64,000 bases of DNA from Phycisphaerae bacterium (GCA_041687095.1 JAWLCQ010000001.1:25664-89663), one strand, 5' to 3'. Shown: positions 16,997-35,692, counted from the stretch's first letter. Numbers and translations: made by a program. Notes: generated from the sequence alone by a model not told the origin.

Positions 16997-18192
16997 GGCC
17001 GGGCCTCCGGGGGGGTGGGGAGGCGCTCGTCGGCAAAGATCCGGTCACACCGTTGCGGGTCCACCACGTTCACGCTCCGCGAGGCGTTCAGCAGGGGGGG
17101 CGGGGCGGTCCCGGGGGCGATGGTTACCAGCAGGACGGTGGCGTTCTGCAGAGCCGGCGCCCCGACGCGGGCCGCCAGGGCGGCGGGCGGCACGGCCGGT
17201 GCGTCGTCCACGTCGGCGAGGGCGTCGAGCAGGCGGGCCCGCTGCTCCAGACCGGGCGCGGGGGCGTGGACGAGGATCCCCCCCTCGCCCGCCAACGCCA
17301 TCCCCACGCGATACCCGCGCGCGAAGGCCACGTCCACCACCGTCGCCGTGAACCGCAGCAGTTTCTCCCGTGCCTGGACGGCCTCGGGCGCCTCCCCGGG
17401 CGTTGCGGCGTCCAGCAGCACCCACAGCACGTCCGGGCGCGTGCGGGCCATCTCGCGGACCACGGGGCTGGCGCGGCCGGCGGAGCGGCGCCAGTGGATC
17501 CAGCGGGGGTTGTCGTCGGGGCGGTACTCCCGCAGGCCGAAGAACTCGTCCTGCCCCCCCGTCGCGGGGCTGGGGGCGCTGTTGGAGATCTCCACCGCCC
17601 CGCGCGGCAGCAGCCGCCCGAGCACCTTGCCCCGCGCGGGCCAGACCACGAGGCCATGGTCGCACGGGTAGCGGGCGAATGCCCGGATCAACCCGAAGGG
17701 GAACGTGGTGCTCACGCGGATCTCGCGGAGGCGCCTCCGCCCGCGGGTGTGGGCGACGAACCGCCCCCCGCTGCGGAAGACCGAGCGGCGGGGCAGGTGC
17801 AGGCAGTAGGCGGGAACCCACTCCATGCCCTCGGCGGGGAGTTCCTCGACGTAAAGCCCCAGCGACGAGCCCCACCGCCGCTCGTTCCGCAGGAAGTATC
17901 CCACGTGGGCGACCTGGTTCTGCCAGACCCGCCCCGGCGCTTCGCGACGGATCGAGACCCCGGCGACGTTCCGCCTCGCCATCACCGCCGACACGTGCAA
18001 CGCCCCCATCATCGCCCCGAAGAGCACGAACGACAGCGGCGCCTGCGAGTTCACCCCCGCCGCCCCCACCGTCAGCGAGATCGCCAGGAAGATCCACCCG
18101 CTCATCGTCAGCCGAAAGTGCACAGCCACGCGGCGGCGGCGCTTCCGCCGGCGGGCGGGGGGAGGAGGGGATTGTTCCGTTGGCATCTTCAC
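16987..18192 (-). CDS. DUF58 domain protein (MoxR-associated, VWA-like)
   Basis: DEFFGLREYRPDDNPRWIHWRRSAGRASPVVRE matches the DUF58 signature FxGxREYxPGDxxRxIxWK. The N-terminus is a TM hairpin. GTG/ATG starts lie at 18192/18186. Confidence 0.85.
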   Translation of the reverse strand: MKMPTEQSPPPPARRRKRRRRVAVHFRLTMSGWIFLAISLTVGAAGVNSQAPLSFVLFGAMMGALHVSAVMARRNVAGVSIRREAPGRVWQNQVAHVGYFLRNERRWGSSLGLYVEELPAEGMEWVPAYCLHLPRRSVFRSGGRFVAHTRGRRRLREIRVSTTFPFGLIRAFARYPCDHGLVVWPARGKVLGRLLPRGAVEISNSAPSPATGGQDEFFGLREYRPDDNPRWIHWRRSAGRASPVVREMARTRPDVLWVLLDAATPGEAPEAVQAREKLLRFTATVVDVAFARGYRVGMALAGEGGILVHAPAPGLEQRARLLDALADVDDAPAVPPAALAARVGAPALQNATVLLVTIAPGTAPPPLLNASRSVNVVDPQRCDRIFADERLPTPPEARPCP

Positions 18193-18223
18193 TGCTGTCG
18201 CAGGATCCTTTGGGGAACCAAAT

Positions 18224-18258
18224 CCGAAACCCGAAACCCGAAACCCGAAACCCGAAAC
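18224..18258. repeat. Heptanucleotide tandem repeat (CCGAAAC)x5 in an AT-enriched spacer upstream of the DUF58 gene
   Basis: ccgaaacccgaaacccgaaacccgaaacccgaaac, followed by related aaatccaaaacacgaaatccaaatg. Local GC is far below the 70 % background. Confidence 0.7.
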
Positions 18259-18396
18259 AAATCCAAAACACGAAATCCAAATGACAAAAACCAGTCTCCG
18301 ACGCCGCGGGCAACCGGGTGCCCAATGCCACGACTGCGCTGTCTGCCACCGTGCCCCAAGAAACGCTACGGGTTCTGCGAGTCCCTGACGTCTGGG

Positions 18397-18726
18397 TCAA
18401 CGGGGCCAGCGGGTATTAAGGCTTTGCAGCGCAGCGGCGGCCGAGGCGTCGCTGTCGGACTCGGCGGAGGCGCTGACGGCCTGGTCGCGTCGTCGGCGGC
18501 AGAAGGCCTCGTAGTTCATCCCCGCCAGGCGGAGACAGACAGCCGCAATGGTCCCACACAACAGCGACAGTGTGCAGCACAGGGCACCCAATACGAGCCC
18601 AACCGATCCGGCCAGTAGGCCTCCGAGCGAGTAGTCGATTACGTGCGCAGTGCATAGACCTGCCCAGCCGGCGGCGGCGGCCCATGCAATGCAGCAGGAC
18701 CAGAGGATCACGGCCAGCACTTTCAT
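18397..18726 (-). CDS. Small hypothetical membrane protein (109 aa, 2-3 TM, Cys-rich) between MoxR and DUF58
   Basis: MKVLAVILWSCCIAWAAAAGWAGLCTAHVIDYSLGGLLAGSVGLVLGALCCTLSLLCGTIAAVCL.. with SD GAGGTG-6nt-ATG. It is the terminal part of run-through ORF 18397..20469. Confidence 0.45.
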   Translation of the reverse strand: MKVLAVILWSCCIAWAAAAGWAGLCTAHVIDYSLGGLLAGSVGLVLGALCCTLSLLCGTIAAVCLRLAGMNYEAFCRRRRDQAVSASAESDSDASAAAALQSLNTRWPR

Positions 18727-18803
18727 GTTTTGCACCTCTGCCAAGCAGCCAATCAACGAACACCCGCTGCACAACTGGTCTCCAGCCGTCCGGCATTCCG
18801 GTC

Positions 18804-19739
18804 CTACTGCGGGACCGGGACGGTTTCCAGCAGGCGGGCGAAGATCTCGTCCGCCCCGCCCGATGCTCCGTCCTGGGAGAAGCCTCGCGTCACCAGGCGG
18901 TGGGCGCAGACGGCGGGGGCGAGGTCCTTTACGTCGTCGGGGACCACGTACTCGCGCCCCGCCAGCAGCGCCGCCGCCCGCACCGCCTGCCCCAACGCCA
19001 GCGACGCCCGGGGGGACAGCCCGATCGTCAGCTCCTCGCTCCGCCGCGTCGCCTCCGCGATCGACAGGATGTAGTCCTCGATGGCCGGGTCCATCCGCAC
19101 GGCCAGTACCTGCTCCTGCAGCGCCAGCACGTCGGCGGTGTCCATGACGCAGGGCAGATCCGGCAGGCGGGTGCTGGCGGGGCGGAGGCGGAGGATCTGC
19201 CGCTCCACGTCGCGGTCCGGGTATCCGATCCGCACCCGCAGCATGAACCGGTCGAGCTGGTTCTCGGGGAGGAAGTACGTGCCCTCGAACTCGTAGGGGT
19301 TCTGCGTCGCCAGCACCAGAAACGGGGGGCCGAGGGGGTAGGTCTTCCCGTCCTGGGAGACCTGGGATTCGCTCATCGCCTCCAGCAGGGCGCTCTGGGT
19401 GCGGGGGGTGGTGCGGTTGATCTCGTCCACCAGGACGATGTGGGCGAAGACCGGCCCGCGCTTGAAGGCGAACTCCCCCGTCGTCCCGTCGTAGACCGAC
19501 ACGCCCAGGATGTCGCTGGGCAGCAGGTCCGGGGTGAGCTGGATGCGGTGGAACGTGCAGTCGATGCTCCGCGCGACCGCCTGGGCGAGGACGGTCTTGC
19601 CCACGCCCGGGACGTCCTCCAGCAGCACGTGCCCCTTCGCCAGAAGCGCCGTCAGCACCCGGTCCACCGCCTGGGGCTTGCCCAGCAGGACGCGCTGCAC
19701 ATTTTCCCGCAACGCGGTCAGTTTCTGTCGTACGTCCAT
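18804..19739 (-). CDS. MoxR-family AAA+ ATPase
   Basis: Walker A GVPGVGKT, Walker B LVDEINR, and typical MoxR length (311 aa). It is the first gene of the operon with DUF58 and TGase. Confidence 0.9.
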   Translation of the reverse strand: MDVRQKLTALRENVQRVLLGKPQAVDRVLTALLAKGHVLLEDVPGVGKTVLAQAVARSIDCTFHRIQLTPDLLPSDILGVSVYDGTTGEFAFKRGPVFAHIVLVDEINRTTPRTQSALLEAMSESQVSQDGKTYPLGPPFLVLATQNPYEFEGTYFLPENQLDRFMLRVRIGYPDRDVERQILRLRPASTRLPDLPCVMDTADVLALQEQVLAVRMDPAIEDYILSIAEATRRSEELTIGLSPRASLALGQAVRAAALLAGREYVVPDDVKDLAPAVCAHRLVTRGFSQDGASGGADEIFARLLETVPVPQ

Positions 19740-21867: not shown

Positions 21868-22097
21868 CTCACGCAAAGGCGCAAAGGCGCAAAGGGAAGA
21901 AGAGGCAGCGGGAAGAAGAAGCCTGCACCGTCCCGCGCACGGCGCGCTTCATGGACGGGATGGACTCGATGGACAGTATGGACGCCATGGACCCGCGGGG
22001 TTCCGCTGTGCGGTCCTCTGCGTAATCTTGAAATCTGTGCAATCCCTCTCTCTCCGAGCTGTTTCTTCCCCTTCGCGCCTTTGCGCCTTTGCGTGAG
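21868..22097. repeat. About 30-bp near-perfect inverted repeat (arms 21868-21899 and 22065-22097, each containing (GCGCAAAG)x3) flanking about 165 bp that include a 23-codon Met-Asp-repeat micro-ORF
   Basis: Arm 1 is ctcacgcaaaggcgcaaaggcgcaaagggaag; arm 2 is cttccccttcgcgcctttgcgcctttgcgtgag (the reverse complement, with one indel). Between them ATGGACGGGATGGACTCGATGGACAGTATGGACGCCATGGAC is an in-frame MDGMDSMDSMDAMD... ending in TAA at 22022. Confidence 0.6.
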
Positions 22098-22250
22098 ACT
22101 TCCCCCGGTTCCCGGTTCCTGGCTCCTGGTTCCTTGGTCCCCCGGTTCCCCGGTTTCGACATTCCCGTACTCCCGCCCTCCCTCCCGCGGTAAATTTGCA
22201 TTTCGCGTCTAAGAACGTCCCTCCTGCGTCGTGATAGGGGATGGAGACCG

Positions 22251-22802
22251 ATGCGGCTCCGGAGACGCTGCATGAAGGGAGACAACCGCGAGGCGGACTG
22301 GGTTCGGTCCGCCATGGCCCGCTACGAGGGCCCCCTGCTCCGCTATGCGTTGCGCATCTGCGGGAGCGAGGAGTGCGCCCGCGACGTCGTGCAGGACACG
22401 TTCCTCCGCATGATCGAGCACAAGGGCCCCGGCGACGACCACCTCGCGGAATGGCTCTTCACCGTCTGCCGCAACCGTGCCATCGACCTCTGCCGAAAGG
22501 AACGGCGAATGACGCAACTGGACGCACCCATCGACACCGCCGCCTGCCCCGCCCCCCCGCCCCCGGCCCTGGCGGCGGCCGCTGAAACCGCCGCCGCCGT
22601 CGCCTCCGCCCTCGACCACCTGCCCCCCAACCAGCAGGAGGTCCTGCGGCTGAAGTTCCAGGACGGGTTCTCCTACAAGCAGATCTCCTCCATCACGGGG
22701 CACTCCGTCTCCAACGTGGGGTTCCTGATCCATACCGGTATCCAGACGCTCCGCCGCTCGCTGCGATCCAGCAGCCCCTCGGCGATCGGGGAAGGAGTCT
22801 GA
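22251..22802 (+). CDS. ECF-type RNA polymerase sigma-70 factor
   Basis: Region 2 (ARDVVQDTFLRMIE, WLFTVCRNRAIDLCRK) and region 4 HTH (LPPNQQEVLRLKFQDGFSYKQISSITGHSVSNVGFLIHTGIQTLRR). GGAG SD before the ATG at 22251; alternative start at 22272. Confidence 0.85.
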   Translation: MRLRRRCMKGDNREADWVRSAMARYEGPLLRYALRICGSEECARDVVQDTFLRMIEHKGPGDDHLAEWLFTVCRNRAIDLCRKERRMTQLDAPIDTAACPAPPPPALAAAAETAAAVASALDHLPPNQQEVLRLKFQDGFSYKQISSITGHSVSNVGFLIHTGIQTLRRSLRSSSPSAIGEGV

Positions 22803-22804
22803 TC

Positions 22805-25800
22805 ATGACGCACGACGACTCACACGACACGATCGCCCCCGCTTTGCTCACCGCGTACGCCCTGGGCGAGTGCGACGAGACGGAGCGGTCCACCGTCGAA
22901 GCCTACCTCAACGCCCACCCCGCCGTACGCGAGGAACTGGAGGACACGCTCCGGATCGGCGGCCTGCTCTCCGAGAGCTTCGCGTCCGAACTCGAAGCGC
23001 CCCCGGTGCTGTCGCTCACCGATGAGCAGCGAAACGCGATTGCCTCCGTAGCGGAGAATCGTCCTGCTCCTCAACTGCCCTGCGCAGTGGCGCAGTGTGG
23101 CGAACCGTCCCGTTCCGCTCGTTCCGCCCCTCCGCCGCTGCGCCGCTCCCTCCGCCTGTGGGTTCCGCTGTCGATGGCGGCGGGACTGGTGCTGGGACTG
23201 GCGGTTATGCACGTTATCCTGGGTTCCGGGGCAAGGGGGACCCCGGAGCCCCACGCTGAAATCATCGTGGCCGGTGCGACCAACGCCGCCACCTCCCCGC
23301 CTCCCGCGCCTGCCCCCGCGGCGGGCGAGGCCCTCGCCGCAGACGAGCCCTCCCTCGCCGCCGGCGAAACCCCGCTGCGCCCGTCCGTCGTACTGGACCC
23401 CGCCCGGGAGACCTCCCCGGACGCCGTCACGCTGGCGGGGAACATCGAAAACGCCCCCGCGATTCCCGGTGAGCCCCCGCGCATCCTCGCCGTTCCGCCC
23501 CCGCCCGTGGCTGCGGACCAGATCGTCTCGCAGATGCGCTTCTCCGAGTCCGACCCCAACGGAGGAAAACCGCTCCTGGACCTGGAGGCCGACTACGCCT
23601 TCCGCTCCGGCAGCGAGCGCTTCCTCCGCCGCCCCGCACCGAAGCGCCCGCAGGTGGCGAGCAACACCATCCAGTACATTCAGGAGCAGCACGAGGGGCT
23701 GCTGGCCCCCAACGCGGGAACGCCCGTGCTCGACCTCACCGTCGACTACGCCCGCGACGGGCTGGACGCCTACCTCCGCCACGCCCTGCCCGATCGGCCG
23801 ACTGTCGCGTACCAGAACGCGGACTACGTCCTGCAGCGGCACGGGGGGCTGATGGCGGCGACTGGCGTCAACAACTGCACGTACGTTGCGGATCAGCATG
23901 GGGGACTGCTCGCGCCCAACGTGGTCACCAATGGGTGTTTGGTCATGGACCGCCACGGTGGGTTGCTGGCGATTGACGGGACAGGGACCGCGGTGATTCC
24001 CTCTCCCGCGGAGTCCACGGGGACACGGGTAACGGGTCTGCTGGTCACGCCCCCCGACTATGTCGGGGGGGTGAACTGGAGCTTGGAGGACACCCTTCGG
24101 ACGCAGTCCGGGGGCGTTGGGTCGCTCACCGTCGGCGGCGAGGGTCGGGACATACACGGTACGTTAACCCGTGGTGCGAGTACTGCCTGCCTCTCCGACC
24201 TCGCCGCCGGCGGTGGGCTTTCGCCCGGCCTTTCCAGCGAACCACAGTACTTCTTCGGTCTGGCGGGCGAGCTGCACATCGGTGGGGAGTACACCCTGGG
24301 GACTCTCGTCCCGACGGCGGGGATCGGCGACTGGGACGCCGACGGCAAGGGGACGTACGAGGCCCCCGGCATCGTCTACAAGAGCGGTGCCGACAGCATA
24401 CTGGACCTCACAGGCGTGACGAGCACCTACACCAGTGGGACGAACATCATCGGCGGCAAGGTGAAGATCGCCTCCAGCGACGCCGTGGAGCCCTTGGCGG
24501 CCGTCGATGTCGAAGCCCTCAAGGAGCAGGCCCGCTCACGCATTTTGGAAAGTCGCTTCGAGGAAGCTCTCCAGGACGTCAACCAGATCCTCCGTCACGA
24601 TCCCCAGAACGCCTTCGCCGCCCAGCAGCAGGTCCTGCTGGCCAACCTCGTCAACGTCCGCCGCGAACGTCGACACCGCCTGGCACTGGGGGCAGGCGAT
24701 GTCTACGGCTGTCGCGAGATCCGCGGGAAGATCAGCGACAACGGACCCGATATGGGCAACCTGATCCTCAACAGCGGCGGAACGTTGAACGGGACCCGCG
24801 AGGTGACGCTGCTGAACCGCGAGAACGACTTCAGCGGCGATGTCACGATGGGCGGGGGCACGCTGCAGATCATCGCCGGAGCCATCCCCTCCGCGACGGA
24901 CCTGATTCTCAACGGCGGCCATGCCACGGTTGCGCCGCCTGCCACAGGCAGCGGCCGCCGGCGCGACCCGCTTCCGTGGTACGACCTGCTCCGCTATCCG
25001 TCCAACTGGGGCAGCACCGGCTGGGCGGGCGAAGCGGGGGGGGCGCCGGTCGCCTCGGACAACGACGCGGATCAGCGTGCGTGGGAGCGACTGAACACGC
25101 GCGTCCCGGAACTGGACCTCCACGGGGTGTCCCTTCGCGACGCGATGGATTCCCTGCGGGACATTACCCAAGCCAACCTGCACGTGAAGTGGCTCGCCCT
25201 GCAGGATGCGGGCATCGATGAGAACATCGAGGTGGAGAACCTGAAGCTCACCGACGTGACCGCCCGGGACGCCCTGCGGGCGCTGCTCGATGCGATCTCC
25301 ACCCAATCCGGGGCGACGGAGGGAGATGCGCTGGCGTACGTCGTCGAGGACGGCGTGGTGACGATCTCCACGGCCAAAGACATCGCCAGGCCCACCATCA
25401 CCCGCGTCTATGACGTGCGCGGTGTGATGTGGCAGGTTCCCGACTTTGATGAACTGATCCGCGATCTCGGGGCGGAGGCGGGCCCCGGTGTGACGGTCGA
25501 TAGCGGGCTGCTATTCGCAGCCGGGCATGGGAGCGCGGATGTGCTCTCTCGCAGCGAAACCGGCCCTTTCATCGATACCACGATCGCCACGTTCTCCGAC
25601 GGAGCACGCCTGCCGTCCGCGCAGATCACCCAAATCACGCTGTTCGGGGACGACGACGACGGCTGCACCCGCTCGGAACGGATGGACAAGATCCGCAGGA
25701 TCATCGCCCAGAACGTCGCCCCGGAGACCTGGGTGCCTCACGGAGACATCGGGGCCTTTAGTGAGTTGAGCGGGCAACTGGTGGTGACCCAAACCCCCCG

Positions 25801-27586
25801 GAACCACGCCGCCGTCGCCAGCCTCCTCGAACGCGTCCGCCAGACCCGATCCCTTCGGCAGATGCGCCAACAGGAACGCCCCGGTGCGTTCGTCCTCTGC
25901 CTCGCTACCCCCGCCGCCGAACTCCGCATGCTCCTCAACACCGCCGTCGTGCACAACGACGACGTCGATGCGATGCGCTGGCAGCCCGCCGAGGCGGTGC
26001 GTGTCCCCGACCCCGCGGCCCGCAAGCGGGGCGAGTGGATCGCGGGGCGATTGGGCGAACTGGGCGCCGCCGCCCGCGTCGACCCCGCCGGGCGCGTCAT
26101 CGTCGAACGCGTCCCGCGCCCGGACAGCGAGGGCCACCAGCGCGAGGCGTACGCTCACATCGACGAGAACCCCTTCCGCCCCGTCACCACCGAGCCCGTC
26201 TCCACGTTCTCCATCGACGTGGACACCGCCTCGTACTCCAACGTGCGGCGGATCCTCGGGGAGAACCGCCTCCCGCCCCCCGGCGCCGTCCGCGTCGAAG
26301 AGATCGTCAACGCCTTCCCGTACCGCTACACCCCGCCCCCCGAAAACGCCGACCACCCCTTCGCCGTCCACACCGCCGTCGCCCGCTGCCCGTGGAACGG
26401 GGGCAACCGCCTCGTCCGCGTCGCCCTCAAGGGCAGGGAGGTCTCCGAGGACAAACGCCCGCCCGCCAACCTCGTGTTCCTGCTCGACACGTCGGGGTCG
26501 ATGTCCAGCCCGGATAAGCTCCCGCTGGTGAAGGAGGCGATGCGGCGGCTGGTGCAGCGGCTGGGCGAGAAGGACCGCGTCGCCATCGTCACCTACGCCG
26601 GGAACGCCCGCGTCGCCCTCGAGTCCAGCCCCTGCCACCTCCGCACCCCCATCCTCACCGCCATCGACGCCCTCCAGTCGGGCGGGTCCACCAACGGGGC
26701 GGGCGGAATCCGCGAAGCCTACCGCCTCGCCGCCGAGGGCTTCCTCAAGGACGGGATCAACCGCGTGATCCTCTGCACCGACGGGGACTTCAACGTGGGC
26801 GTCACCAGCGAGAGCGAACTCGTCCGCCTCATCCAGGAGCAGGCGAAGGGCGGGGTCTTCCTCACCCTCCTGGGGTTCGGGACCGGAAACCTCCAGGACG
26901 ACCGCCTCGAAGCCATCGCCGACAAGGGCAACGGGCACTACCACTACATCGACTCCCTCGACCACGCGGACCGCATCCTCGGGACCGGTCTCACCGGGAC
27001 GCTCCTGACCATCGCCAAGGACGTGAAGATCCAGGTGGAGTTCAACCCCGCCCGCGTGTCCAGCTACCGGCTGATCGGGTACGAGAACCGCGCCCTCGCC
27101 CGCGAGGACTTCAACAACGACCGCAAGGACGCGGGCGAGATCGGGGCGGGGCACACCGTCACCGCCCTCTACGAGGTCGTCCCCGCCGATGCCCCGCCCC
27201 CGCCCGACGCGCCCCCCGCCCCCGACGCCCTCCGCTACCAGCGCCCCGCGGGTCTGAGCGACGCAGCCCGCAGCGATGAACTGCTCACGCTCAAGCTCCG
27301 CTACAAGCAGCCCGACGGGGACACGAGCATCCTCATGGAGCAGCCCGTGAAGGATGGGGCCGGGGAGCTGACGGACTGCGAGTTCCGCATGGCGGCGGCG
27401 GCGGCGTCGTTCGCGATGATCCTCCGCGACTCGCGGCACGCGGGGACGTTCACGCTCGATGCGGTGGACGAGATGGCGCTGTCGGCCCGCACGGACGCCG
27501 ACGCCCGCCCCGCCGACTGGAACGCCGCCGTCGCCGATTTCCGGACGCTGGTGCAGAAGGCCAAGGAACTGCTCCCCGGGCGGTAG
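22805..27586 (+). CDS. Anti-sigma factor fused to a large extracytoplasmic region: N-terminal anti-sigma domain, one TM helix, repeat region, STN-like domain, C-terminal YfbK-like VWA (DUF3520)
   Basis: The start is 2 nt after the sigma stop. Anti-sigma N-domain (LLTAYALGECDETERSTVEAYLNAHPAVREELEDT), TM LWVPLSMAAGLVLGLAVMHVIL, four copies of Q(Q/R/D)HGGLLA(P/I)N spaced 20-50 aa, STN-like LDLHGVSLRDAMDSLRDITQANLHV, VWA MIDAS LVFLLDTSGSMSS...GGSTNGAGG...LCTDGDFNVG. Confidence 0.8.
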   Translation: MTHDDSHDTIAPALLTAYALGECDETERSTVEAYLNAHPAVREELEDTLRIGGLLSESFASELEAPPVLSLTDEQRNAIASVAENRPAPQLPCAVAQCGEPSRSARSAPPPLRRSLRLWVPLSMAAGLVLGLAVMHVILGSGARGTPEPHAEIIVAGATNAATSPPPAPAPAAGEALAADEPSLAAGETPLRPSVVLDPARETSPDAVTLAGNIENAPAIPGEPPRILAVPPPPVAADQIVSQMRFSESDPNGGKPLLDLEADYAFRSGSERFLRRPAPKRPQVASNTIQYIQEQHEGLLAPNAGTPVLDLTVDYARDGLDAYLRHALPDRPTVAYQNADYVLQRHGGLMAATGVNNCTYVADQHGGLLAPNVVTNGCLVMDRHGGLLAIDGTGTAVIPSPAESTGTRVTGLLVTPPDYVGGVNWSLEDTLRTQSGGVGSLTVGGEGRDIHGTLTRGASTACLSDLAAGGGLSPGLSSEPQYFFGLAGELHIGGEYTLGTLVPTAGIGDWDADGKGTYEAPGIVYKSGADSILDLTGVTSTYTSGTNIIGGKVKIASSDAVEPLAAVDVEALKEQARSRILESRFEEALQDVNQILRHDPQNAFAAQQQVLLANLVNVRRERRHRLALGAGDVYGCREIRGKISDNGPDMGNLILNSGGTLNGTREVTLLNRENDFSGDVTMGGGTLQIIAGAIPSATDLILNGGHATVAPPATGSGRRRDPLPWYDLLRYPSNWGSTGWAGEAGGAPVASDNDADQRAWERLNTRVPELDLHGVSLRDAMDSLRDITQANLHVKWLALQDAGIDENIEVENLKLTDVTARDALRALLDAISTQSGATEGDALAYVVEDGVVTISTAKDIARPTITRVYDVRGVMWQVPDFDELIRDLGAEAGPGVTVDSGLLFAAGHGSADVLSRSETGPFIDTTIATFSDGARLPSAQITQITLFGDDDDGCTRSERMDKIRRIIAQNVAPETWVPHGDIGAFSELSGQLVVTQTPRNHAAVASLLERVRQTRSLRQMRQQERPGAFVLCLATPAAELRMLLNTAVVHNDDVDAMRWQPAEAVRVPDPAARKRGEWIAGRLGELGAAARVDPAGRVIVERVPRPDSEGHQREAYAHIDENPFRPVTTEPVSTFSIDVDTASYSNVRRILGENRLPPPGAVRVEEIVNAFPYRYTPPPENADHPFAVHTAVARCPWNGGNRLVRVALKGREVSEDKRPPANLVFLLDTSGSMSSPDKLPLVKEAMRRLVQRLGEKDRVAIVTYAGNARVALESSPCHLRTPILTAIDALQSGGSTNGAGGIREAYRLAAEGFLKDGINRVILCTDGDFNVGVTSESELVRLIQEQAKGGVFLTLLGFGTGNLQDDRLEAIADKGNGHYHYIDSLDHADRILGTGLTGTLLTIAKDVKIQVEFNPARVSSYRLIGYENRALAREDFNNDRKDAGEIGAGHTVTALYEVVPADAPPPPDAPPAPDALRYQRPAGLSDAARSDELLTLKLRYKQPDGDTSILMEQPVKDGAGELTDCEFRMAAAAASFAMILRDSRHAGTFTLDAVDEMALSARTDADARPADWNAAVADFRTLVQKAKELLPGR

Positions 27587-27594
27587 GAGGTCAG

Positions 27595-27633
27595 GCGTGC
27601 AGGCGGCTGCGATTCGTTCCGCCGCCTGCACGC
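27595..27633. terminator. Bidirectional GC-rich hairpin between the convergent anti-sigma and glycosidase genes
   Basis: gcgtgcaggcggc-tgcgattcgtt-ccgccgcctgcacgc: a 13-15 bp stem in a 72-nt convergent spacer. Confidence 0.4.
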
Positions 27634-27658
27634 CCTGCCCCAGGGCCGCCTGGGCGCC

Positions 27659-29713
27659 TTACGCCTTCGGAATCTCGTACAGGCGGGCGGAGTGCGGGGG
27701 CAGCCAGGTGGCCACGCCCTCGGACCCGATCGTCACATCCTCGCCCGTCCAGAAGTCCTTCGCCGTCACCGCACCCGTGAGGCCCATCTGCTCCAGGGTG
27801 TACCCGGTGCACTGCGGGCGGTCCGTCCAGTTGAACAGGGCGACGTGCTTGGCGATGCCCCGCTGCGCGGTGCGGCTGCCTTGGGGGTAGTCCACGTACA
27901 GGCACTTGGGCAGGGGCGTTCCGGTGAAGGCCTCCTCGTCGGGGCAGTGCACCGCGTGCCCGCGGTCCATGTTCGCCATGACCTGGTTGAGCATCGCGAC
28001 CTTGTCCGCTGGCAGTTCCTCCAGCCGCCCGTCCACCTCCAGGCTGCCCATGGTGATGAAGGCGTAGGTGAGGCGGTGGAGGTTCTCGGCGTCGTTCATC
28101 TTGGCGCTCCAGCCGATCCCGTCGACGTTGGGGAGAATGGTGCGGCGGGAGGGCAGGGCGTGCAGGGGCAGGTTCCAGATGCTTGCTGTCACGTGCTCCC
28201 GCCAGTTGCATGCCCCGACGTCGATGGAGCAGCGGTGCGTCTGGGCGTACTTGCCCAGGAAGGGGTTGCCCATGGCGACGGCGACGCAGGTCATGAGGAA
28301 CCCGTCAGTGGGCAGGTAGGAGCGGATGGTCGACAGCAGCCAGTCCCGCCACTGCACGCCCGTGCCCGTGGCGTAGCGGATCGTCTCGGACTCCACGCCC
28401 TGCGCCCAGAAGTCCATCTTCATCGCCTCGTAGCCCCACTCCTTGAACAGGATGGTGAAGACCTTGTGCAGGTACTCCTGCACGGGGGCGAGCGAGAAGT
28501 CCAGATACCCGCTGTTGCCGATGCGGTACACGTTTCCGCTGGCGTCCTTGGCGAGCCACTCGGGGTGCTCCTTGGCGAGCGTGGTGTGCAGGCCCACCGA
28601 GGGCGTCCACCAGATCGCGGGGGTGAGCCCGGTCTCGCGGATCCGGTCGGCCATCGCCTTCATGCCGTTGGGGAACAGTTTCGCGTCGTGCCACTGGCCC
28701 TCGGGGAGGTAGAAGTTGGCGCAGGAGGGGCACATGACGGCCTCGCGGGACTGCCAGCCCCCGTCGATGAGGAAGTGCTTCACGTCGGGCATGTGGGCGG
28801 CGATGAAGCGGGCGGTCTTGAGGAGCTTGTCCTCGCTGATGTCGTGGAAGACCCCGTAGTTCCACGAGCAGTAGAACGCCTTGGTGAGCAGGATGTTGTC
28901 CTCGCCCTGAAGCGCGTTCTCGGTGGTGACGGCGTCGATGTATCCCGCCCAGGCGTCCTGGGGGTGCGTGCGCTCCAGGATCTCGTAGTACATGGGCTCC
29001 AGGGCCAGGCTCTCCCCGGGCTGGATCTCGAACCCGCCGTTGTGCATCGACCAGTGCATCTCGTAGGTGCGGATGGGCGCCCCCGCCCCGGCCGACAGGG
29101 TCCACTGCGCCCGCGTGCGGTCCTGGCGGAGCTGACCCTCCAGCAGCAACTGGCTGAAGCTGTCGTTGGTGAGCATCATCGCCGGGACCGCCTGGTTCTC
29201 CTGGTTTCCGAAGACGGTGTCCGTCTTGGGCAGGGAGCGGACGTAGGGGGATTCGGGGCGGCACCAGGGGAACTTCTCGGTGCGGACGTTGTCCATGTGG
29301 CAGTAGCGGGCCCGCCAGATGTGGTTGTCGCTGAACACGGGCTTCCCGCCCGCCGTCCCCCCCGCCGCCGCCCCGCGGATCACGTGCGAGACCGCCGCGG
29401 TGTTGCGGACCAGGCGGTCCACCCGCAGCGCCCCGTTGGGCAGCAGGCGAAGCGTGACCGTCTCCTCCAGGCCCGGGGCGCTGTAGGCGCCCCGCATCTC
29501 CAGCCCGTCGGGGATCTCGCGGACCTCCGTGCAGGCGAACGGCTCGCTGCCGGAGTGGGTGTAGTACTCGAACCCCGCCTTGCCCGTCCCGTGGTACGTC
29601 CCCAGGGACAGGCCGATCCCCTCCCATCCCAGGTTCCTGCCGCTCGCCTTGTAGCTGAAGCGCCCGTCGAGGACGCTGAGGGTTCGCTGGTGCTTCTCAA
29701 CCGTGGTGGTCAT
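27659..29713 (-). CDS. Alpha-galactosidase-like glycoside hydrolase (clan GH-D, GH36/GH27-like)
   Basis: 684 aa with KHFLIDGGWQ (GH27/36 DDGW-type substrate box) and YEAMKMDFW (KxD nucleophile region). TIM-barrel-like hydrophobic pattern. Confidence 0.65.
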   Translation of the reverse strand: MTTTVEKHQRTLSVLDGRFSYKASGRNLGWEGIGLSLGTYHGTGKAGFEYYTHSGSEPFACTEVREIPDGLEMRGAYSAPGLEETVTLRLLPNGALRVDRLVRNTAAVSHVIRGAAAGGTAGGKPVFSDNHIWRARYCHMDNVRTEKFPWCRPESPYVRSLPKTDTVFGNQENQAVPAMMLTNDSFSQLLLEGQLRQDRTRAQWTLSAGAGAPIRTYEMHWSMHNGGFEIQPGESLALEPMYYEILERTHPQDAWAGYIDAVTTENALQGEDNILLTKAFYCSWNYGVFHDISEDKLLKTARFIAAHMPDVKHFLIDGGWQSREAVMCPSCANFYLPEGQWHDAKLFPNGMKAMADRIRETGLTPAIWWTPSVGLHTTLAKEHPEWLAKDASGNVYRIGNSGYLDFSLAPVQEYLHKVFTILFKEWGYEAMKMDFWAQGVESETIRYATGTGVQWRDWLLSTIRSYLPTDGFLMTCVAVAMGNPFLGKYAQTHRCSIDVGACNWREHVTASIWNLPLHALPSRRTILPNVDGIGWSAKMNDAENLHRLTYAFITMGSLEVDGRLEELPADKVAMLNQVMANMDRGHAVHCPDEEAFTGTPLPKCLYVDYPQGSRTAQRGIAKHVALFNWTDRPQCTGYTLEQMGLTGAVTAKDFWTGEDVTIGSEGVATWLPPHSARLYEIPKA

Positions 29714-29746
29714 TGCATCGAGTCCTTTGCTGTATGCTTTCGAGGG

Positions 29747-30715
29747 TTACGAATTCGTGGAGACGGCCAGGGCGACGATTTGCGACTCCGGACCGTCCGC
29801 CCGCGGCTTGATGCCGCAGAGGAACACCTCCGCCGCGCCGTCCGGGCCGTACAGGAACGGGCGCTCGAGGCGGTGGATCGCCTCCCGACGCCCGTCCTCG
29901 TGGAGCACCTGCCGCTCCTGGACGACGGCCGGGGCGCTCAGGCGCCAGTCCAGCCCGTCGGGCGATTCGAACTGCACGATGGCGCGCTCGGAGGGGGAGT
30001 AGAACGTGCCCTGGTCCTTGAGGAGGACGCGGTAGCGGCCGTCCTGGTGCCAGACGAACGGGTCCTCGCCGGGGAAGTCGGCCCCGGCGGCGGCGAATAG
30101 CGGCGTGGGGTGCTTGACGAAGGGGCCCGTGGGGGAATCGGCAAAGGCGACCCCGTGCAGCACGGGCCCGTACTGGGGGCCCGGGTTGCGGTCCCCGACG
30201 CCCTTGTAGACCAGGAGGAACCGCCCGTCGGGCGTGGCGGTGCAGGAGGGGTTGGTCGTGACCTTGGCGTCCCAGGCGCCGGGCGTGACGTCCAGCAGGG
30301 GCGCGTCGAATCGCTCCCACGGGCCCTGCGGGCAGTCCGCGACGGCCAGGCCGATGCGCTGGTGGTTGCGGTGGTCCCACCACTCCCCATTGCCGCGATT
30401 GCCGTTGTAGTACAGGTAGTAGCGGTCCCCGAACCGCCTGACGGAGGGGTTGTGGGTCACGTCCCCGTCCCAGTGGCCCGGGCGGGGGGGCAGGACCACC
30501 TCCTCGAAGCGGAAGGGGCCCAGCGGCGTCTCCGCCGACGCGCGACAGACCTCCGAGTGGGTCACCCACGCCTCGAAGCCCTTCGCGACCGGCCAGCGCG
30601 AGAAGAACAGGTGGTGGGCGCCCGTGGCGTCCGTCACCAGCGACGGATCCCACACGCAGTACCCTTCCATCCCAAAGATCGACGAGGCCTTGGCGGGCTT
30701 GGTCACGATCGTCAT
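29747..30715 (-). CDS. Five-bladed beta-propeller glycoside hydrolase-like protein (GH43/GH117/GH130-like)
   Basis: WDPS, HLFFS, YYLYYNG, IGLAVADCPQGPWER and GVAFADSPTGPF blade motifs are typical of furanosidase-type propellers; 322 aa. The exact family cannot be assigned by eye. Confidence 0.6.
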   Translation of the reverse strand: MTIVTKPAKASSIFGMEGYCVWDPSLVTDATGAHHLFFSRWPVAKGFEAWVTHSEVCRASAETPLGPFRFEEVVLPPRPGHWDGDVTHNPSVRRFGDRYYLYYNGNRGNGEWWDHRNHQRIGLAVADCPQGPWERFDAPLLDVTPGAWDAKVTTNPSCTATPDGRFLLVYKGVGDRNPGPQYGPVLHGVAFADSPTGPFVKHPTPLFAAAGADFPGEDPFVWHQDGRYRVLLKDQGTFYSPSERAIVQFESPDGLDWRLSAPAVVQERQVLHEDGRREAIHRLERPFLYGPDGAAEVFLCGIKPRADGPESQIVALAVSTNS

Positions 30716-30951
30716 CGGCAGTGGTCCTTGGCCTCGTGGGTCCGGCGCCGCGGCCCAGCCGCGATGTTCTGCTCTGCAGTCATGAACGTCTCCATCCTTC
30801 TCCTCCGCCCGCGGGATGCCCCGGGCGGGCTTCCGCCCCGCCCCGAACTCTCGTCACCCCGCCGGGCGCCGGTCGGACAGTCCCCGAAGCTTACGACACG
30901 CGCACCGCTGGGGTCCAGTGCCCGGACACAATGCCCAGGGCCATCGCATCT

Positions 30952-31096
30952 CCGTGGCACGGGCGTCTCGCCCCTGCGGAGAGGCGAGAACGGCCTCGCG
31001 GCGAGCCCAAGCGCCCCCAATCCACGGGGGTTTCTCCGCCGAAGGCCACGGGCTTTCCTGCCCGTGGGACCCATGGGCGAGACGCCCGTGCCACGG
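30952..31096. repeat. Perfect 22-bp inverted repeat (CCGTGGCACGGGCGTCTCGCCC / GGGCGAGACGCCCGTGCCACGG) separated by about 100 bp, within a 476-bp intergenic region
   Basis: Arm 1 at 30952-30973, arm 2 at 31075-31096. The loop contains a further short hairpin, ccacgggctttcctgcccgtgg. No credible ORF. Confidence 0.7.
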
Positions 31097-31191
31097 AAAT
31101 TCTGTTCACCGCCGTGCTCGCACGAGCGCGGCGGAACAGGGGTCGCAGAACCCCCGGTGCCCTGCGGGTGCGCCCGCGAGAGCGCGGCGGC

Positions 31192-32700
31192 CTACCCTTC
31201 GGCGCGGCCGGGGCGGAACTGCAGATCGTACACGCAGTCGTTCAGCTCGAAGTACTCCTCGGCGTTGACGTCGGTGACGGGGACTCCGTCGATGGTCAGG
31301 TTCTCGAAGACGATGTCGCGGTGGCCGTTCTCTGCGTCCTTGCCGATGATCCGGCTCTTGCGGCAGTCGAGGTTCTGGCGGCCTTCCACGGTGATGTTGC
31401 GGAAGCGCAGGTTGCGGGTATTACCGTTGCAGAGGTTCCGCTTGCCTTCGGGCCACGGGTAGGGGCGGTTCTCGATCCAGACCAGGCGGCAGTTGGCGTT
31501 CAGGTCGCCCTCGATGCGGATGTCCTCGTAGCGGTGGTTCTTCACGCCGGTGTCGCTCGCGGTCCCGTCGATGACGCACTGGAACACCGCGTGCTCCGGG
31601 CAGACCTTGATGTCGATGTTCTCCGCCACGGCCGTGAAGTCGTGGTCGAGGGAATTGGCCCAGTAGCTCATGCAGAAGATGTTGTTGTTGGACGAGCTGA
31701 CGAAGGAGTTGCGAATGGCCATGTTCCCCCGGAAGTTGTCCCGGGTAAAGAACACGTCATCGCCGACGAAGGCGAAGCACTGGTCCACGAAGGCCGTCTG
31801 CTGGGGGTTGGGGGAGAGGTAGAACCCATCGGTGGACCCGTACCAGGGGGAGATCAGCTTGACCCCGTAGATCTCCTGGAGTCCGTAGAACGTGCAGTAC
31901 CACGGGGTGTTGACGATGGTGACGCCCTCGAGGCGGTTGCCCGTCGGGCCCGCCCCCCCGGGCCCCCCGGCCACCATGAGGTAGGGGCGCTTCTCCTGGG
32001 ACGACAGGCCCTCCAGCGACTCCCCGGGCCACAGTTCTCCGGACAGGACGCCCGGGCCCAGAATCCGCACGTCGCGCTGCCCGGCGAGGTCGAAGGTGCC
32101 CCGCACCCACGCCCCCCCGTCGAGGTAGATTGCCCGTCCGCTCTGCGCCCGGTGCCCCAGCCCGAGGGTATGCACCCCGGGGCCGAAGTACTCGGCCCCC
32201 TCGGGCACCGGCGGTTTGGGCGCGTCGGCGAAGAGGAACACGGGGTTCGCGTCGTCCCCGTCCACCGTCACCCACGCCTTGTCGAGGGGGGTGAGGGTGA
32301 AGACGGCCCGGCCGTCTTCGATCGCGGCGGCGATGGCCTTGGACCTGGGGCTGATCTCGACGCGCCCGATCCCCCCGGAGAGCTTGGTGACGCGCACGCG
32401 GACCGCCCCCGAGGTCCCAAACGTCGCGAAGCTCACGCTCGGGTGCTCCCCGCGGCGCCACCCGTAGCAGATGCACAGCCGGGCGACCTTGTAGAGGTAC
32501 ACCGCCTGCCACCCCGCCCCGTCGTGCACCTCGACGGTGTAGAGATCGGAGCGGTAGGTCTCCACGCCCGGGCCCGGGTAGATCTCCAGCACGGCGGAAC
32601 CCGGTGCGGGCGCCGCCGCTCCCTCGGGACAGGCGGGCGATGGGGCGGGCGACGGTCTCTGTGGATCGGTCGTTGCCATGGGGCTTCCCTTCTTGCTCAA
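31192..32700 (-). CDS. Right-handed beta-helix glycoside hydrolase-like protein (GH28/GH49-like pectin-lyase fold)
   Basis: 502 aa, N-terminal Pro/Ala-rich leader, then repeated beta-helix rungs (NIDIKVC, IRIEGDLNANCRLVWIEN, LRFRNITVEGRQNLDC, IVFENLTIDG). Alternative start MATT at 32679. Confidence 0.55.
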   Translation of the reverse strand: MSKKGSPMATTDPQRPSPAPSPACPEGAAAPAPGSAVLEIYPGPGVETYRSDLYTVEVHDGAGWQAVYLYKVARLCICYGWRRGEHPSVSFATFGTSGAVRVRVTKLSGGIGRVEISPRSKAIAAAIEDGRAVFTLTPLDKAWVTVDGDDANPVFLFADAPKPPVPEGAEYFGPGVHTLGLGHRAQSGRAIYLDGGAWVRGTFDLAGQRDVRILGPGVLSGELWPGESLEGLSSQEKRPYLMVAGGPGGAGPTGNRLEGVTIVNTPWYCTFYGLQEIYGVKLISPWYGSTDGFYLSPNPQQTAFVDQCFAFVGDDVFFTRDNFRGNMAIRNSFVSSSNNNIFCMSYWANSLDHDFTAVAENIDIKVCPEHAVFQCVIDGTASDTGVKNHRYEDIRIEGDLNANCRLVWIENRPYPWPEGKRNLCNGNTRNLRFRNITVEGRQNLDCRKSRIIGKDAENGHRDIVFENLTIDGVPVTDVNAEEYFELNDCVYDLQFRPGRAEG

Positions 32701-32773
32701 GGCCGCTGCCGTACTATCGCTCCGTCCCGCGGGCCGGTGACGGTGCGGGATTCGCAGAGCAGCGGCGGGGGGT

Positions 32774-34078
32774 TCATTCGTTGGCTCGGGGGGGGAGGTC
32801 CGGCACGATCGCGCCGTGCTCCCGGAGCAACTCGTGCAGTTCGGTCAGGGGCACCGCCTCGGGATCGACCCGGCGGCGGGCGGCGAGTGCGGCCAGCGCT
32901 CCGGCGGCCTGTCCGACGGCCATGCAGGTCGCCTGCACGCGGAGGGCGGAGTTGGCGAGGCGGTCGCTGGAGATGCAGCGGCCGGCGACGAGGAAGTTGC
33001 GGCTATTCTGGGGCAGCAGCGCCCCGCGGGGGACGGTGGGCACGACGCCCTCGGAGAGCGGTTCACACTGCAGCCCTCCGCCCGAGGACGTGTGCAGGTC
33101 GATCGGGTAGAACGAGTAGCAGACCGCGTCGTCCCACACGCGCCCGGAGCAGTAGTCCTGGACCGTGACCGTCCGCTTGCCCCGGATGGTGACCGTCTCG
33201 CGCACACCGCACTCGGGCGACAGGTGCTCGATCACCAGGGCCTCCAGGCCCTTCTGGCGGCGGAGGAAGCGGTACAGGCGGAGCAGCCCCCTCCGGGCCT
33301 CCAGTTCCAGCCGCGTCCTGCCCTCGCTGTCGCGGGCGTTGATGTGGTGGACGTGGCTGGCGTTCTCGCCGCGCTTTCGGAGCCACGTTCCGGCATCGGC
33401 GGCGGCGGGGTTCCAGGAGGCGTCGGTGTACTGCATGCGTCCGGCCCGCACTTCGGCGTCGAAGGCGCGGTTGATGGCGTCGAGGTCCAGGCTCGCCGGA
33501 TCATAGCCGCCGGCGCGGCAACTGAGGGTGGCGGGCTGGGTCTCGGGGGGGACGTGGAGGGCAAAGCCCGCCAGGGCGGCGGCGTTGGCGTCGGCGGTGG
33601 CGTCGATGACCACGGCTCCCGTCCGGGTGGTCAGCCCGCTCTTGGTGCAGAGCGTCACGCTCCAGCCCCCGTCCTGGGGCAGGGGGGTGACGTCGGCGAC
33701 CATGGTGTGCAGGAGGATCTCCACCCCGGCGGCGGCGACGCTCTCGTCGCACAGGGCGGCGTAGAGGAAGGGGGTCACGCGGACGTGGTGCTTCCAGTGC
33801 GGCTGGCGGAAGTCGCGGAAGTCCGGCACCTGCCCGCCGGCCTCGCGAACGCAGCGGGCCACGATCTCCCAGCCGATGCCGGCGATGACGGGGCGGCCCC
33901 AGGCGTGGAAGAGCCCGGGATACGCCACCCCGCCGCTCGTCGTGGTCCCTCCGAGCATGCCGTTCTTCTCGACCAGGAGCGTGCGGGCCCCGGCGCGTCC
34001 GGCCTGGATGGCCGCGACCACCCCGGCCGACCCGCCCCCGAGGACGATGACGTCGTACTGTGGCATGGAGGAGGTCAT
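32774..34078 (-). CDS. FAD-dependent oxidoreductase (FAD_oxidored family common in polysaccharide-utilisation loci)
   Basis: YDVIVLGGGSAGVVAAIQAGRAGARTLLVEK is a Rossmann dinucleotide-binding motif. The start MTSSMPQYD (aa 67 of ORF 32774..34276) avoids a non-protein-like leader. Confidence 0.75.
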   Translation of the reverse strand: MTSSMPQYDVIVLGGGSAGVVAAIQAGRAGARTLLVEKNGMLGGTTTSGGVAYPGLFHAWGRPVIAGIGWEIVARCVREAGGQVPDFRDFRQPHWKHHVRVTPFLYAALCDESVAAAGVEILLHTMVADVTPLPQDGGWSVTLCTKSGLTTRTGAVVIDATADANAAALAGFALHVPPETQPATLSCRAGGYDPASLDLDAINRAFDAEVRAGRMQYTDASWNPAAADAGTWLRKRGENASHVHHINARDSEGRTRLELEARRGLLRLYRFLRRQKGLEALVIEHLSPECGVRETVTIRGKRTVTVQDYCSGRVWDDAVCYSFYPIDLHTSSGGGLQCEPLSEGVVPTVPRGALLPQNSRNFLVAGRCISSDRLANSALRVQATCMAVGQAAGALAALAARRRVDPEAVPLTELHELLREHGAIVPDLPPRANE

Positions 34079-34448
34079 GGTCTGGGTCCGCTTGGCTCTC
34101 GACGCGTTGTCACACTCATCGTACGCAGCTCCTGTCGGCGGGCCGGTGGCGTTTCGGCGCCCGCAGGACGATCGGAAGGCTACCACAGGGGGATCGAGTA
34201 TGCTACGGCCGGAAACGAGAAGCCTCCAGGGCCCTCGCAACCTCGCCGTCGCGGGTGCCACGGCTGCGCTGTTCACAGCCGTGCTTGTGCGGGCTCGCGG
34301 CGGACCACGGGTTCTGCAACCCCGTGGGACCCGGCGGGATCTTTCCCCGGCCGGTCCAATGCGGTACGCTGATCCGTGCCGGGCGCTCCCGCTTGGTGCA
34401 GCGTCACCGGCCTGGCCGTGGAGCGCCGGTCCCCTGGGGGCCGGTGCG

Positions 34449-35501: not shown

Positions 35502-35585
35502 CCACCTGGTCGGGGTACATGCAGGTGTCGAGGCGTCCCGCCTCCAGGGCGTCGGCATCGGGTTTCCCCGCCGCCCGAAGGGCAC

Positions 35586-35692
35586 TCATACGCATCCCAG
35601 TTAATTCTCGGGCAGCGTCGGTCTGACGTGGTTGCTCCGCTGCGCTCCGCAAACCACGGCACCCACCCGAGAATCAAGTGGAACGCGTATCA
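35586..35692 (-). repeat. Copy 2 (inverted) of the roughly 105-nt intergenic repeat seen at 14517-14626
   Basis: Its reverse complement, atacgcgttccacttgattctcgggtgggtgccgtggtttgcggagcgcagcggagcaaccacgtcagaccgacgctgcccgagaattaactgggatgcgtatg, aligns with copy 1 at about 90 % identity. It lies between the convergent esterase and nucleoside hydrolase genes. Confidence 0.6.

Follow-up and report, generated by a model that had tools for sequence, protein, structure and literature searches.

How a protein of 1593 amino acids, encoded directly behind a small sigma factor gene, could take part in a sigma/anti-sigma switch is the question raised by a locus within 64,000 nucleotides of DNA from a Phycisphaerae bacterium (GCA_041687095.1, JAWLCQ010000001.1:25664-89663; this whole stretch is hereafter called the window). 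An initial annotation had paired an extracytoplasmic function (ECF) sigma factor with a giant anti-sigma protein at this locus, and we found both open reading frames (ORFs) where it had placed them. In all likelihood the pair is an ECF sigma/anti-sigma switch, probably self-induced, of the type in which an anti-sigma domain is followed by a transmembrane (TM) helix and a YfbK module, and it has been enlarged here by the accretion of domains. The pairing of the genes, the identities of the domains, the family membership, the conservation of a promoter motif and an internal duplication were all observed directly, and they are taken up in turn below; the coordinates of all features are collected in Table 1.

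The TGA stop of the sigma factor gene occupies 22800-22802 and the ATG of the large ORF lies at 22805, leaving a gap of 2 nt, with a GGAG sequence 8 nt 5′ of that ATG. Both Sigma70_r2 (aa 23-86, E 1.5e-12) and Sigma70_r4_2 (aa 116-164, E 1.6e-11) were detected in the sigma factor above the Pfam cutoffs, and the ECF superfamily model TIGR02937 scored 85.5 bits against a cutoff of 42.9; no narrower NCBIfam model rose above its own cutoff. A protein of 176-183 aa with only the sigma2 and sigma4 regions, followed after 2 nt by an anti-sigma-type gene as it is in seven of seven homologous loci, is a group 4 (ECF) sigma-70 factor. The shorter version of 176 aa is present in the public protein collection and the longer one of 183 aa is absent. 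Identity to the sigma factors encoded upstream of three homologous anti-sigma-YfbK genes is 62, 51 and 42%.

The large ORF runs without a stop across 4.8 kb with a continuous coding-frame signal. Since its third-position GC is the highest of the frames in every 100-codon window (0.74-0.98), there is no sign in the window sequence of a frameshift splitting it, an error that the initial annotation had considered. An identical entry (P0001) exists in the public collection, where it comes from NCBI, from one 123-kb contig, and forms a singleton cluster. Upstream the pair borders on ribE-like and pdxA genes, downstream on glycosidase genes that converge with it, and a GC-rich hairpin lies 3′ of the stop codon, which together delimit a two-gene unit. 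This hairpin, the probable end of the operon, has no T-tract, and a consensus terminator scan makes no call there.

The N-terminus of the large protein was characterized mainly through its relatives. A family profile (A1) made from 34 homologue N-termini, with the consensus LTAYALGELD..ER..VEA.LA..P.AR, matched the solved anti-sigma factors RslA (3hug_B, E 1.1e-5), RskA (4nqw_B, E 9e-4) and ChrR (E 0.04), and because of these matches we assign the domain, at the level of sequence, to the RskA/RslA-like class I anti-sigmas. When the N-terminus of the 1593-aa protein was used alone, NF052375 (E 1.6e-7, 31.6 bits versus a cutoff of 100), zf-HC2 (E 0.039) and RskA_N (E 0.069) were recovered below threshold. 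The consensus of the family conserves no His or Cys and thus no zinc motif (H-x3-C-x2-C); judging from this the domain is not a zinc-binding anti-sigma (ZAS) domain, and a non-zinc RskA-like subclass remains compatible. Like RskA and RslA, the class I anti-sigmas of Mycobacterium tuberculosis (PDB 4nqw and 3hug), the protein has a helical N-terminal domain with a (T)AYALGxL...ER..xExHL pattern and a single TM helix after it, but it differs from them by the lack of the zinc motif throughout its family and by a far larger, unrelated extracytoplasmic part.

The TM helix (Kyte-Doolittle maximum 2.11) is the only strongly hydrophobic stretch of the protein. Since the residues RRSLR precede it, the positive-inside rule predicts a cytoplasmic N-terminus and an extracytoplasmic location for the remaining approximately 1450 aa, so that the single TM helix followed by a long extracytoplasmic sequence, as first described, stands. 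The Pro/Ala-rich linker that comes next had no family match in the Pfam scan and is probably extended or disordered.

At the other end of the protein, vWF_A, VWA and YfbK_C domains follow one another in this order, all above the Pfam cutoffs, which is the arrangement that defines the YfbK family. The residues of the metal-ion-dependent adhesion site (MIDAS; DxSxS...T...D) are present as DTSGS (1228-1232), T1296 (in GGSTNG) and D1326 (in CTDGD), and the MIDAS-containing VWA domain and DUF3520-like C-terminus of the initial annotation are thus borne out by strong domain matches. Sequence matches of the module in the PDB were to VWA domains only (ITIH4, BatB). The same three-domain module with an intact MIDAS makes up Escherichia coli YfbK and the vWF_A/VWA/YfbK_C family, and identity over the module to the homologues listed is 47-61% (120 best matches of the family search described below). 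YfbK itself has been described as a free periplasmic protein (PMC12204202), whereas here the module forms the C-terminus of a protein that is anchored in the membrane and linked to a sigma factor.

To define the family, residues 1-150 were joined to residues 1096-1593 and used as a query, which recovered at least 8000 proteins at E<=1e-20; the family statistics were drawn from the 120 best matches. Both the N-terminal anti-sigma domain and the YfbK module were found in 71 of these 120. The two-ended homologues are 626-1129 aa long (median 761); in them the anti-sigma domain and the YfbK module are separated by a linker of 183 aa in the median and at most 522 aa, as compared with about 1020 aa here. 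Sources of the family matches, where named, are mostly Planctomycetota, Phycisphaerae and Verrucomicrobiota. In all seven homologues that were looked up, an ECF sigma gene lies directly upstream, overlapping or a few nt away. An anti-sigma that carries DUF3520 fused to a von Willebrand domain has already been described for group ECF289 of the ECF classification 2.0 by Casas-Pastor et al. (PMC7826278), and the arrangement there, an ECF sigma followed by a single-pass protein with extracytoplasmic vWF_A, VWA and YfbK_C domains, is that of our locus; this likeness lies in the domains of the +1 gene. Thus the fused architecture is not novel: by sequence, its core of anti-sigma domain, TM helix and YfbK module belongs to a large family mostly of the Planctomycetes-Verrucomicrobia-Chlamydiae (PVC) group. 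The exceptional size did hold, the protein being the longest of 121 family members compared and about twice the median length of the family (1593 versus 761 aa). What is unusual is the extreme expansion of the linker and an orphan four-copy repeat within it that has been seen in one genome so far.

Inserts in the linker are also found elsewhere in the family, namely CarboxypepD_reg in P0188, P0206, P0240 and P0251, DUF2950 in P0184, and STN-like modules in P0033, P0161, P0158, P0160 and P0255, the STN-like module being missing from the other 115 of the 120. These five relatives (909-1129 aa) combine an anti-sigma domain, a TM helix, one or two STN-like modules and YfbK, as our protein does, and the four whose loci were inspected (P0033, P0161, P0158 and P0160) all have an ECF sigma upstream. 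P0033 and P0161 have in addition the helical segment described below, and in P0033 (1025 aa) the order of anti-sigma domain, helical segment, STN-like module (twice) and YfbK is that of the 1593-aa protein. All five, however, are 460-680 aa shorter than our protein, and neither the HGGLLA repeat nor the Gly-rich segments nor the N1-like domain is found in them.

A candidate promoter was recognized upstream of the sigma gene. The motif CTAAG-N16-CGT occurs with the same spacing exactly once in each of five loci (the window, L001, L080, L081 and L082), 42-112 nt upstream of the called sigma start, compared with a background of one match in 930 kb of unrelated loci. It reads CTAAG(A)AAC-N-CGT and has the AAC/CGT character of ECF promoters, and its geometry in the window is compatible with a sigma start codon at 22272. 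The motif is missing from L003, which has the most distant sigma factor, and L002 has only 67 nt of upstream sequence. This conservation suggests an autoregulatory promoter. The initial annotation had expected a sigma promoter motif from which the regulon could be identified; a conserved motif does exist, but no further exact copy in the window defines a regulon, and matches with one mismatch (19 versus 20.3 expected) are at chance level.

Within the expanded linker, a segment that had been annotated as resembling the N-terminus of secretins or TonB-dependent proteins proved to be of the STN kind, as indicated by its homologues and fold. In an exhaustive HMMER search with residues 1-1100, 2980 proteins were found at E<=1e-3, and all of the best 150 of these match residues ~717-1020. 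The STN-like module, of about 130 aa, occurs in up to eight tandem copies per protein among the matches listed. Many of the matching proteins are secretins that bear tetratricopeptide repeats (TPR) and a PF00263 barrel (P0008, P0020, P0036), with E-values down to 1e-36 for the STN-like part. Pfam STN (PF07660) itself is below threshold in the 1593-aa protein (E 0.055, 13.7 bits versus a cutoff of 28.4); it is above the cutoff in the multi-module homologues P0004 (41 bits), P0005 (39.5) and P0010 (33.6), and reaches E<=1 in 23 of 28 aligned homologous modules, the best at 1.5e-6. An AlphaFold2 (AF2) model made with a nine-sequence alignment had a predicted local distance difference test (pLDDT) score of 89-96 over residues ~760-860, and its top Foldseek matches in the PDB were mostly secretin N-domains (PilQ, GspD, EscC, InvG, XcpQ and the GspC-GspD complex), none of them better than E 1.3e-2.

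The kinship extends to both sides of this module. In local HMMER comparisons, residues 565-1018 are collinear with the pre-barrel part of secretins, with a helical segment (565-629), the STN/N0-like domain (~720-890) and a Secretin_N-like domain (948-1018); the latter aligns with the pre-barrel segment of P0002, P0008, P0020 and P0036, although Pfam Secretin_N reaches only E 2 and the pLDDT of the AF2 model only 58-66. Over the collinear region the planctomycete-type TPR-secretins (GspD/PulD-like; the same four proteins) are 28-40% identical to our protein, which differs from them in lacking the Secretin (PF00263) barrel and in having a Gly-rich segment of about 95 aa between the helical and STN-like modules, which in the secretins are only ~15-70 aa apart. 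On these alignments the STN-like module is real but divergent, with an affinity to secretin N0/N1 and not to TonB-dependent transducers; the earlier description was correct as to the kind of domain.

The other conspicuous part of the linker is the repeat. The four copies of a decapeptide that had been noted around 23680-23990 are there, but the repeat is larger than claimed, consisting of two units of about 50 aa followed by two units of 19 aa. The core H[GE]GL[LM]A stands at residues 296, 346, 365 and 384 (nt 23690, 23840, 23897 and 23954), with no further occurrence when the window is translated in all six frames. The long units follow the pattern PNxGxPxLDLxxDYA...RPxVA...Y[IV]xxxH[GE]GL[LM]A and align to each other with a local score of 113, compared with 20 +/- 3.8 for shuffled sequences, none of 2000 shuffles reaching 113; each of the 19-aa units is significantly similar to the ends of the long ones. 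At the DNA level the copies are 61-83% identical and start 150, 57 and 57 nt apart.

No Pfam or NCBIfam model matches the repeat, and it is in none of the other 272 of the 273 proteins fetched. A DNA pattern of two HGGL[LM]A motifs 8-18 codons apart, which detects only exact conservation of the motif, had 35 matches in genomes and 41 in metagenomes, none of them related: they were rejected as out-of-frame GC-rich DNA or as unrelated repeats, such as a Pirellulales CHGGLLAKHRAKK peptide. A tblastn search of residues 236-560 against plasmids found no match. A word-indexed search with the repeat region alone returned nothing, but it also missed the parent protein and is therefore a weak negative; with residues 1-1100 it returned only the protein itself and one secretin. 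None of the best 150 matches of the exhaustive HMMER search covers residues 140-560. The suspicion that the repeat does not come from a described family, and is not a common one, is thus upheld, and in these searches residues ~250-560, which include the repeat, have no detectable relative. By itself, such an orphan repeat is a single-genome curiosity until relatives or a structure emerge. In L035, L046, L062 and L069 (a Pirellulales metagenome-assembled genome and metagenome contigs), repeated C-HGGLLAKHRAKK units occur in a small protein, predicted to be membrane-bound, that has only the HGGLLA hexapeptide in common with the repeat and is otherwise unrelated.

A Gly/Thr/Ser-rich segment follows the repeat, and no homologues of it (aa ~400-560) were seen. 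Two stretches resemble PATR (PF12951), the better one, at residues ~531-552, with E 2.6e-4 and 21.4 bits versus a cutoff of 27. We suspect that a second Gly-rich segment (aa ~640-715), which was placed by reading the sequence, is PATR-like too, its match being below threshold. A beta-solenoid fold of the repeat region is plausible, given that the period is 19 aa, that the unit looks like strand-turn-strand and that PATR is weakly matched downstream.

The presence of an STN-type domain also speaks for the initial reading of the protein as a cell-surface-signalling receptor fused to its own anti-sigma, in which the STN-like domain would be the signalling domain of a receptor resembling TonB-dependent transducers, and one polypeptide would receive an outer-membrane signal and hold the sigma factor. 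STN domains do mediate signalling of the TonB-dependent transducer/FecR type: in FecR/PupR-type regulators, a periplasmic STN subdomain docks on the outer-membrane partner (in PupR, on the signalling domain of the transducer), and signalling proceeds via regulated intramembrane proteolysis (PMC7186176). Our protein resembles these regulators as a single-pass anti-sigma with an STN-type periplasmic subdomain, but precisely because they already carry this subdomain, its presence implies no fused receptor. Moreover, no TonB-dependent plug, barrel or FecR family appeared in the Pfam or NCBIfam results for the protein and the neighbouring ORFs scanned, nor, in Pfam, a DUF4880-type domain or an adjacent TonB-dependent transducer; the only TM segment is the N-proximal helix; the STN-like module is nearer to secretin N0, with an N1-like domain and a VWA module behind it; and residues 565-1018 find their closest relatives not in transducers but in the N-terminal portions of secretins and in periplasmic proteins with several STN modules. 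A fused receptor is for these reasons very unlikely. A somewhat better case, though still an improbable one, can be made for an envelope monitor that mimics a secretin, whose helical, N0 and N1 block would dock on a planctomycete type II or type IV-pilus-like secretin or on its inner-membrane or periplasmic partners, so that the assembly state of, or damage to, this trans-envelope machine controls the sigma factor, the VWA domain and HGGLLA repeat adding contacts. N0 domains are known as partner-docking modules in type II secretion. The collinearity of residues 565-1018 with the pre-barrel part of TPR-secretins (P0008, P0020, P0036 and others) and the leading Foldseek matches, the GspC-GspD complex among them, speak for such a mimic. 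Yet no secretion or pilus genes were seen among the neighbouring ORFs scanned, 115 of 120 family members do without the STN-like module, and this module is promiscuous, occurring in thousands of proteins, so that homology need not mean a common partner.

Two further explanations would deny the protein its regulatory role or its integrity, and both are extremely unlikely. A membrane-tethered vWA force transducer or adhesin of a TonB/TolA-like kind, next to the sigma gene by coincidence, would be in keeping with the order of the parts (TM helix, Pro-rich linker, vWA domain at the C-terminus), which resembles a class that has been proposed (PMC12204202), and with a MoxR-DUF58-transglutaminase cluster 3-8 kb upstream. 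The proposed transducers, however, adjoin tolQ/tolR-like motor genes and have a TM helix with SHLS or Asp (PMC12204202), whereas no motor family was found among the window ORFs scanned and the TM helix LSMAAGLVLGLAVMHVILG is without either signature; the N-terminus is an anti-sigma domain, and the adjacency to a sigma gene is repeated at seven of seven loci. Alternatively, the middle ~950 aa could be foreign DNA joined in frame during the assembly of a metagenomic contig. The protein cluster has a single member from a single contig, residues 140-560 are without relatives, and third-position GC steps from about 0.8-0.9 (0.74-0.92) over residues 1-1000 to 0.94-0.98 over residues 1050-1593, codon bias being far stronger in the YfbK module than in the anti-sigma domain and inserted linker. 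But the lower values begin already in the anti-sigma domain, a genuine part of the family, and for that reason we read the step as weaker codon bias in a fast-evolving part of the ORF. The N- and C-terminal parts are joined in the 71 two-ended homologues, the insert lies exactly at their variable linker, P0033 and P0161 have the same helical and STN-like modules in the same order, and, as stated above, the reading frame is open and its coding signal continuous.

We return to the ECF switch with an accreted linker, for which the following course of events may be proposed. Sigma binding and its release, the topology, the signal and the role of the inserts are inferred here, with sequestration and inactivation modelled on what is established for class I anti-sigmas. 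The RskA/RslA-like domain would hold the sigma factor at the cytoplasmic membrane, and the TM helix and Pro/Ala-rich spacer would lead to the ~1450 extracytoplasmic residues, with vWF_A, VWA (MIDAS) and YfbK_C as the conserved sensory end, presumably binding a ligand or partner via the metal site. Between them the linker would have grown to its ~1020 aa by accretion of the four-copy HGGLLA repeat, the Gly-rich and weakly PATR-like segments and the block of helical, STN/N0 and N1 modules. Speculatively, these inserts would serve as spacer and docking modules that keep the VWA sensor at a long distance from the membrane or anchor it to a partner in the envelope; by analogy with the STN subdomain of PupR, the N0/N1-like block could dock on a secretin or another envelope protein bearing N0 or STN. 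Altered binding would then trigger inactivation of the anti-sigma, for example by regulated proteolysis, the usual inactivation route for single-pass class I anti-sigmas, and the freed sigma factor would transcribe its own operon from the CTAAG-N16-CGT promoter along with other targets.

Several observations weigh against this interpretation. The anti-sigma domain of the 1593-aa protein, taken alone, falls under every curated cutoff. No second exact copy of the promoter motif is present in the 64-kb window, and no protease gene was identified beside the pair in the neighbouring ORFs scanned. Residues 250-560 could not be modelled, a single-sequence AF2 prediction of residues 236-560 being uninformative (pLDDT 31.5), and the roles given to the inserts are speculation. 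We also found in the literature no experimental study of any sigma-linked YfbK-type family member, so that the presumed anti-sigma activity, like the signal, is drawn from homology and gene context.

A bolder version of the switch would make the HGGLLA region (aa ~250-400) and the Gly-rich segment an undescribed extracytoplasmic repeat for binding a ligand or partner which, together with the N0/N1 block, forms a trans-envelope sensor docking on a secretin or outer-membrane complex. The 19-aa period of the repeat would suit the coils of a beta-solenoid, but we regard this version as a long shot; if true, a sensor reporting the state of such a complex to an ECF sigma would represent an as yet undescribed mode of ECF signalling. 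Irrespective of it, the locus shows how far the variable linker of this family can grow, and the recruitment of secretin-type N0/N1 modules into the linker on more than one occasion points to an envelope partner that could be sought. CTAAG-N16-CGT offers a tangible starting point from which to define the regulon in related genomes. The whole family is of more interest than its 1593-aa member: the sigma-linked YfbK-type VWA proteins are very numerous (the module has at least 8000 homologues, and an anti-sigma domain is present in most of the top-scoring ones) and probably represent a common and unexplored way for PVC-group bacteria to sense their envelope or surroundings.

Table 1. Features of the sigma/anti-sigma locus (window positions; residues are those of the 1593-aa protein) and the conserved upstream sites.
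Feature	Position	Strand	Residues (aa)	Remarks
Putative ECF-type autoregulatory promoter	22209..22236	+		CTAAGAAC-N13-CGTGATA (CTAAG-N16-CGT); putative function
ECF sigma factor gene	22251..22802	+		183 aa from 22251; public gene call starts at 22272, 176 aa
Anti-sigma-type protein, whole ORF including stop	22805..27586	+	1-1593	uninterrupted
Putative cytoplasmic anti-sigma domain, RskA/RslA-like	22832..23059	+	~10-85	without zinc motif
Single transmembrane helix	23153..23224	+	~117-140	LSMAAGLVLGLAVMHVILG; preceded by RRSLR
Pro/Ala-rich linker	23225..23554	+	~141-250	read from the sequence
Orphan internal repeat	23555..23980	+	~251-392	two ~50-aa units, then two 19-aa units ending in HGGLLA
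Gly/Thr/Ser-rich segment	24002..24484	+	~400-560	sub-threshold PATR match at aa ~531-552
Helical segment	24497..24691	+	~565-629	common to planctomycete-type secretins and P0033/P0161
Second Gly-rich segment	24722..24949	+	~640-715	between helical segment and STN-like module
STN/N0-like domain	25052..25459	+	~750-885
Secretin_N (N1)-like domain	25646..25858	+	~948-1018
vWF_A (PF12450)	26138..26419	+	1112-1205	E 1.8e-34, 118 bits
VWA with intact MIDAS	26468..26962	+	1222-1386	E 4.2e-21, 76.4 bits
YfbK_C / DUF3520	26996..27571	+	1398-1589	E 3.7e-60, 203.7 bits; match 1-184 of 184
GC-rich inverted repeat	27594..27634	.		between convergent anti-sigma and glycosidase genes; GGCGTGCAGGCGGC...GCCGCCTGCACGCC, read from the sequence
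CTAAG-N16-CGT site, window	22209			CTAAGAACGTCCCTCCTGCGTCGTGATA
CTAAG-N16-CGT site, L001				CTAAGGAACCGACGACTCGTGCGTCATA
CTAAG-N16-CGT site, L080				CTAAGAAACTTCCTGCTCGTCCGTTATC
CTAAG-N16-CGT site, L081				CTAAGAAAATCGAACCGGCATCGTTATG
CTAAG-N16-CGT site, L082				CTAAGAAACTCCTCTCTCGTGCGTCAAA

The intergenic region between pdxA and the sigma gene contains a 29-nt inverted repeat (21868-22097), 97% complementary, each arm of which consists of three copies of CGCAAAGG, a motif with no occurrence elsewhere in the window. The arms enclose 172 nt with ATGGAC-type tandem repeats, and the whole, when folded as RNA, has an energy of -133.8 kcal/mol (z = -8.6 versus shuffles). Next come seven copies of CCCCGGTT (22103-22155), the last of which stops some 55 nt short of the putative sigma promoter. 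The inverted repeat may be MITE-like, or it may serve as an insulator, terminator or regulatory structure. Scans of the window for Rfam families and tRNAs gave no match.

Further upstream, the cluster at 14768-19739 on the minus strand encodes a MoxR-type AAA ATPase (18804-19739), a DUF58 protein (16987-18192) and a TgpA-like transglutaminase (14768-16996); such clusters are of a common type, here situated, as mentioned, a few kb from a VWA-type anti-sigma gene. A 1498-aa hybrid histidine kinase with at least seven PAS domains, HisKA_3, HATPase_c and a receiver domain is encoded at 10022-14518 (plus strand), and a GGDEF protein at 8550-9908 (minus strand). Downstream of the pair, a series of glycoside-hydrolase-type genes (27659-40528, minus strand) that converges with the anti-sigma gene encodes melibiase-like, GH43-like, rhamnosidase and BNR/sialidase-like proteins together with an FAD oxidoreductase and a nucleoside hydrolase; none of these genes has a copy of the promoter motif.

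The far end of the window is taken up by a giant ORF of more than 5990 codons with a third-position GC of 0.94 (46006-64000, plus strand), which continues beyond the window end. Four minus-strand ORFs of 1241-1619 aa (46744-63972) are read as its antisense shadows, because they lack Pfam matches and have a GC of 0.95 at first codon positions. The giant ORF itself contains 13 right-handed beta-helix stretches, NosD-like repeats, and Kre9/KNH Ig-like and Big_7 domains.

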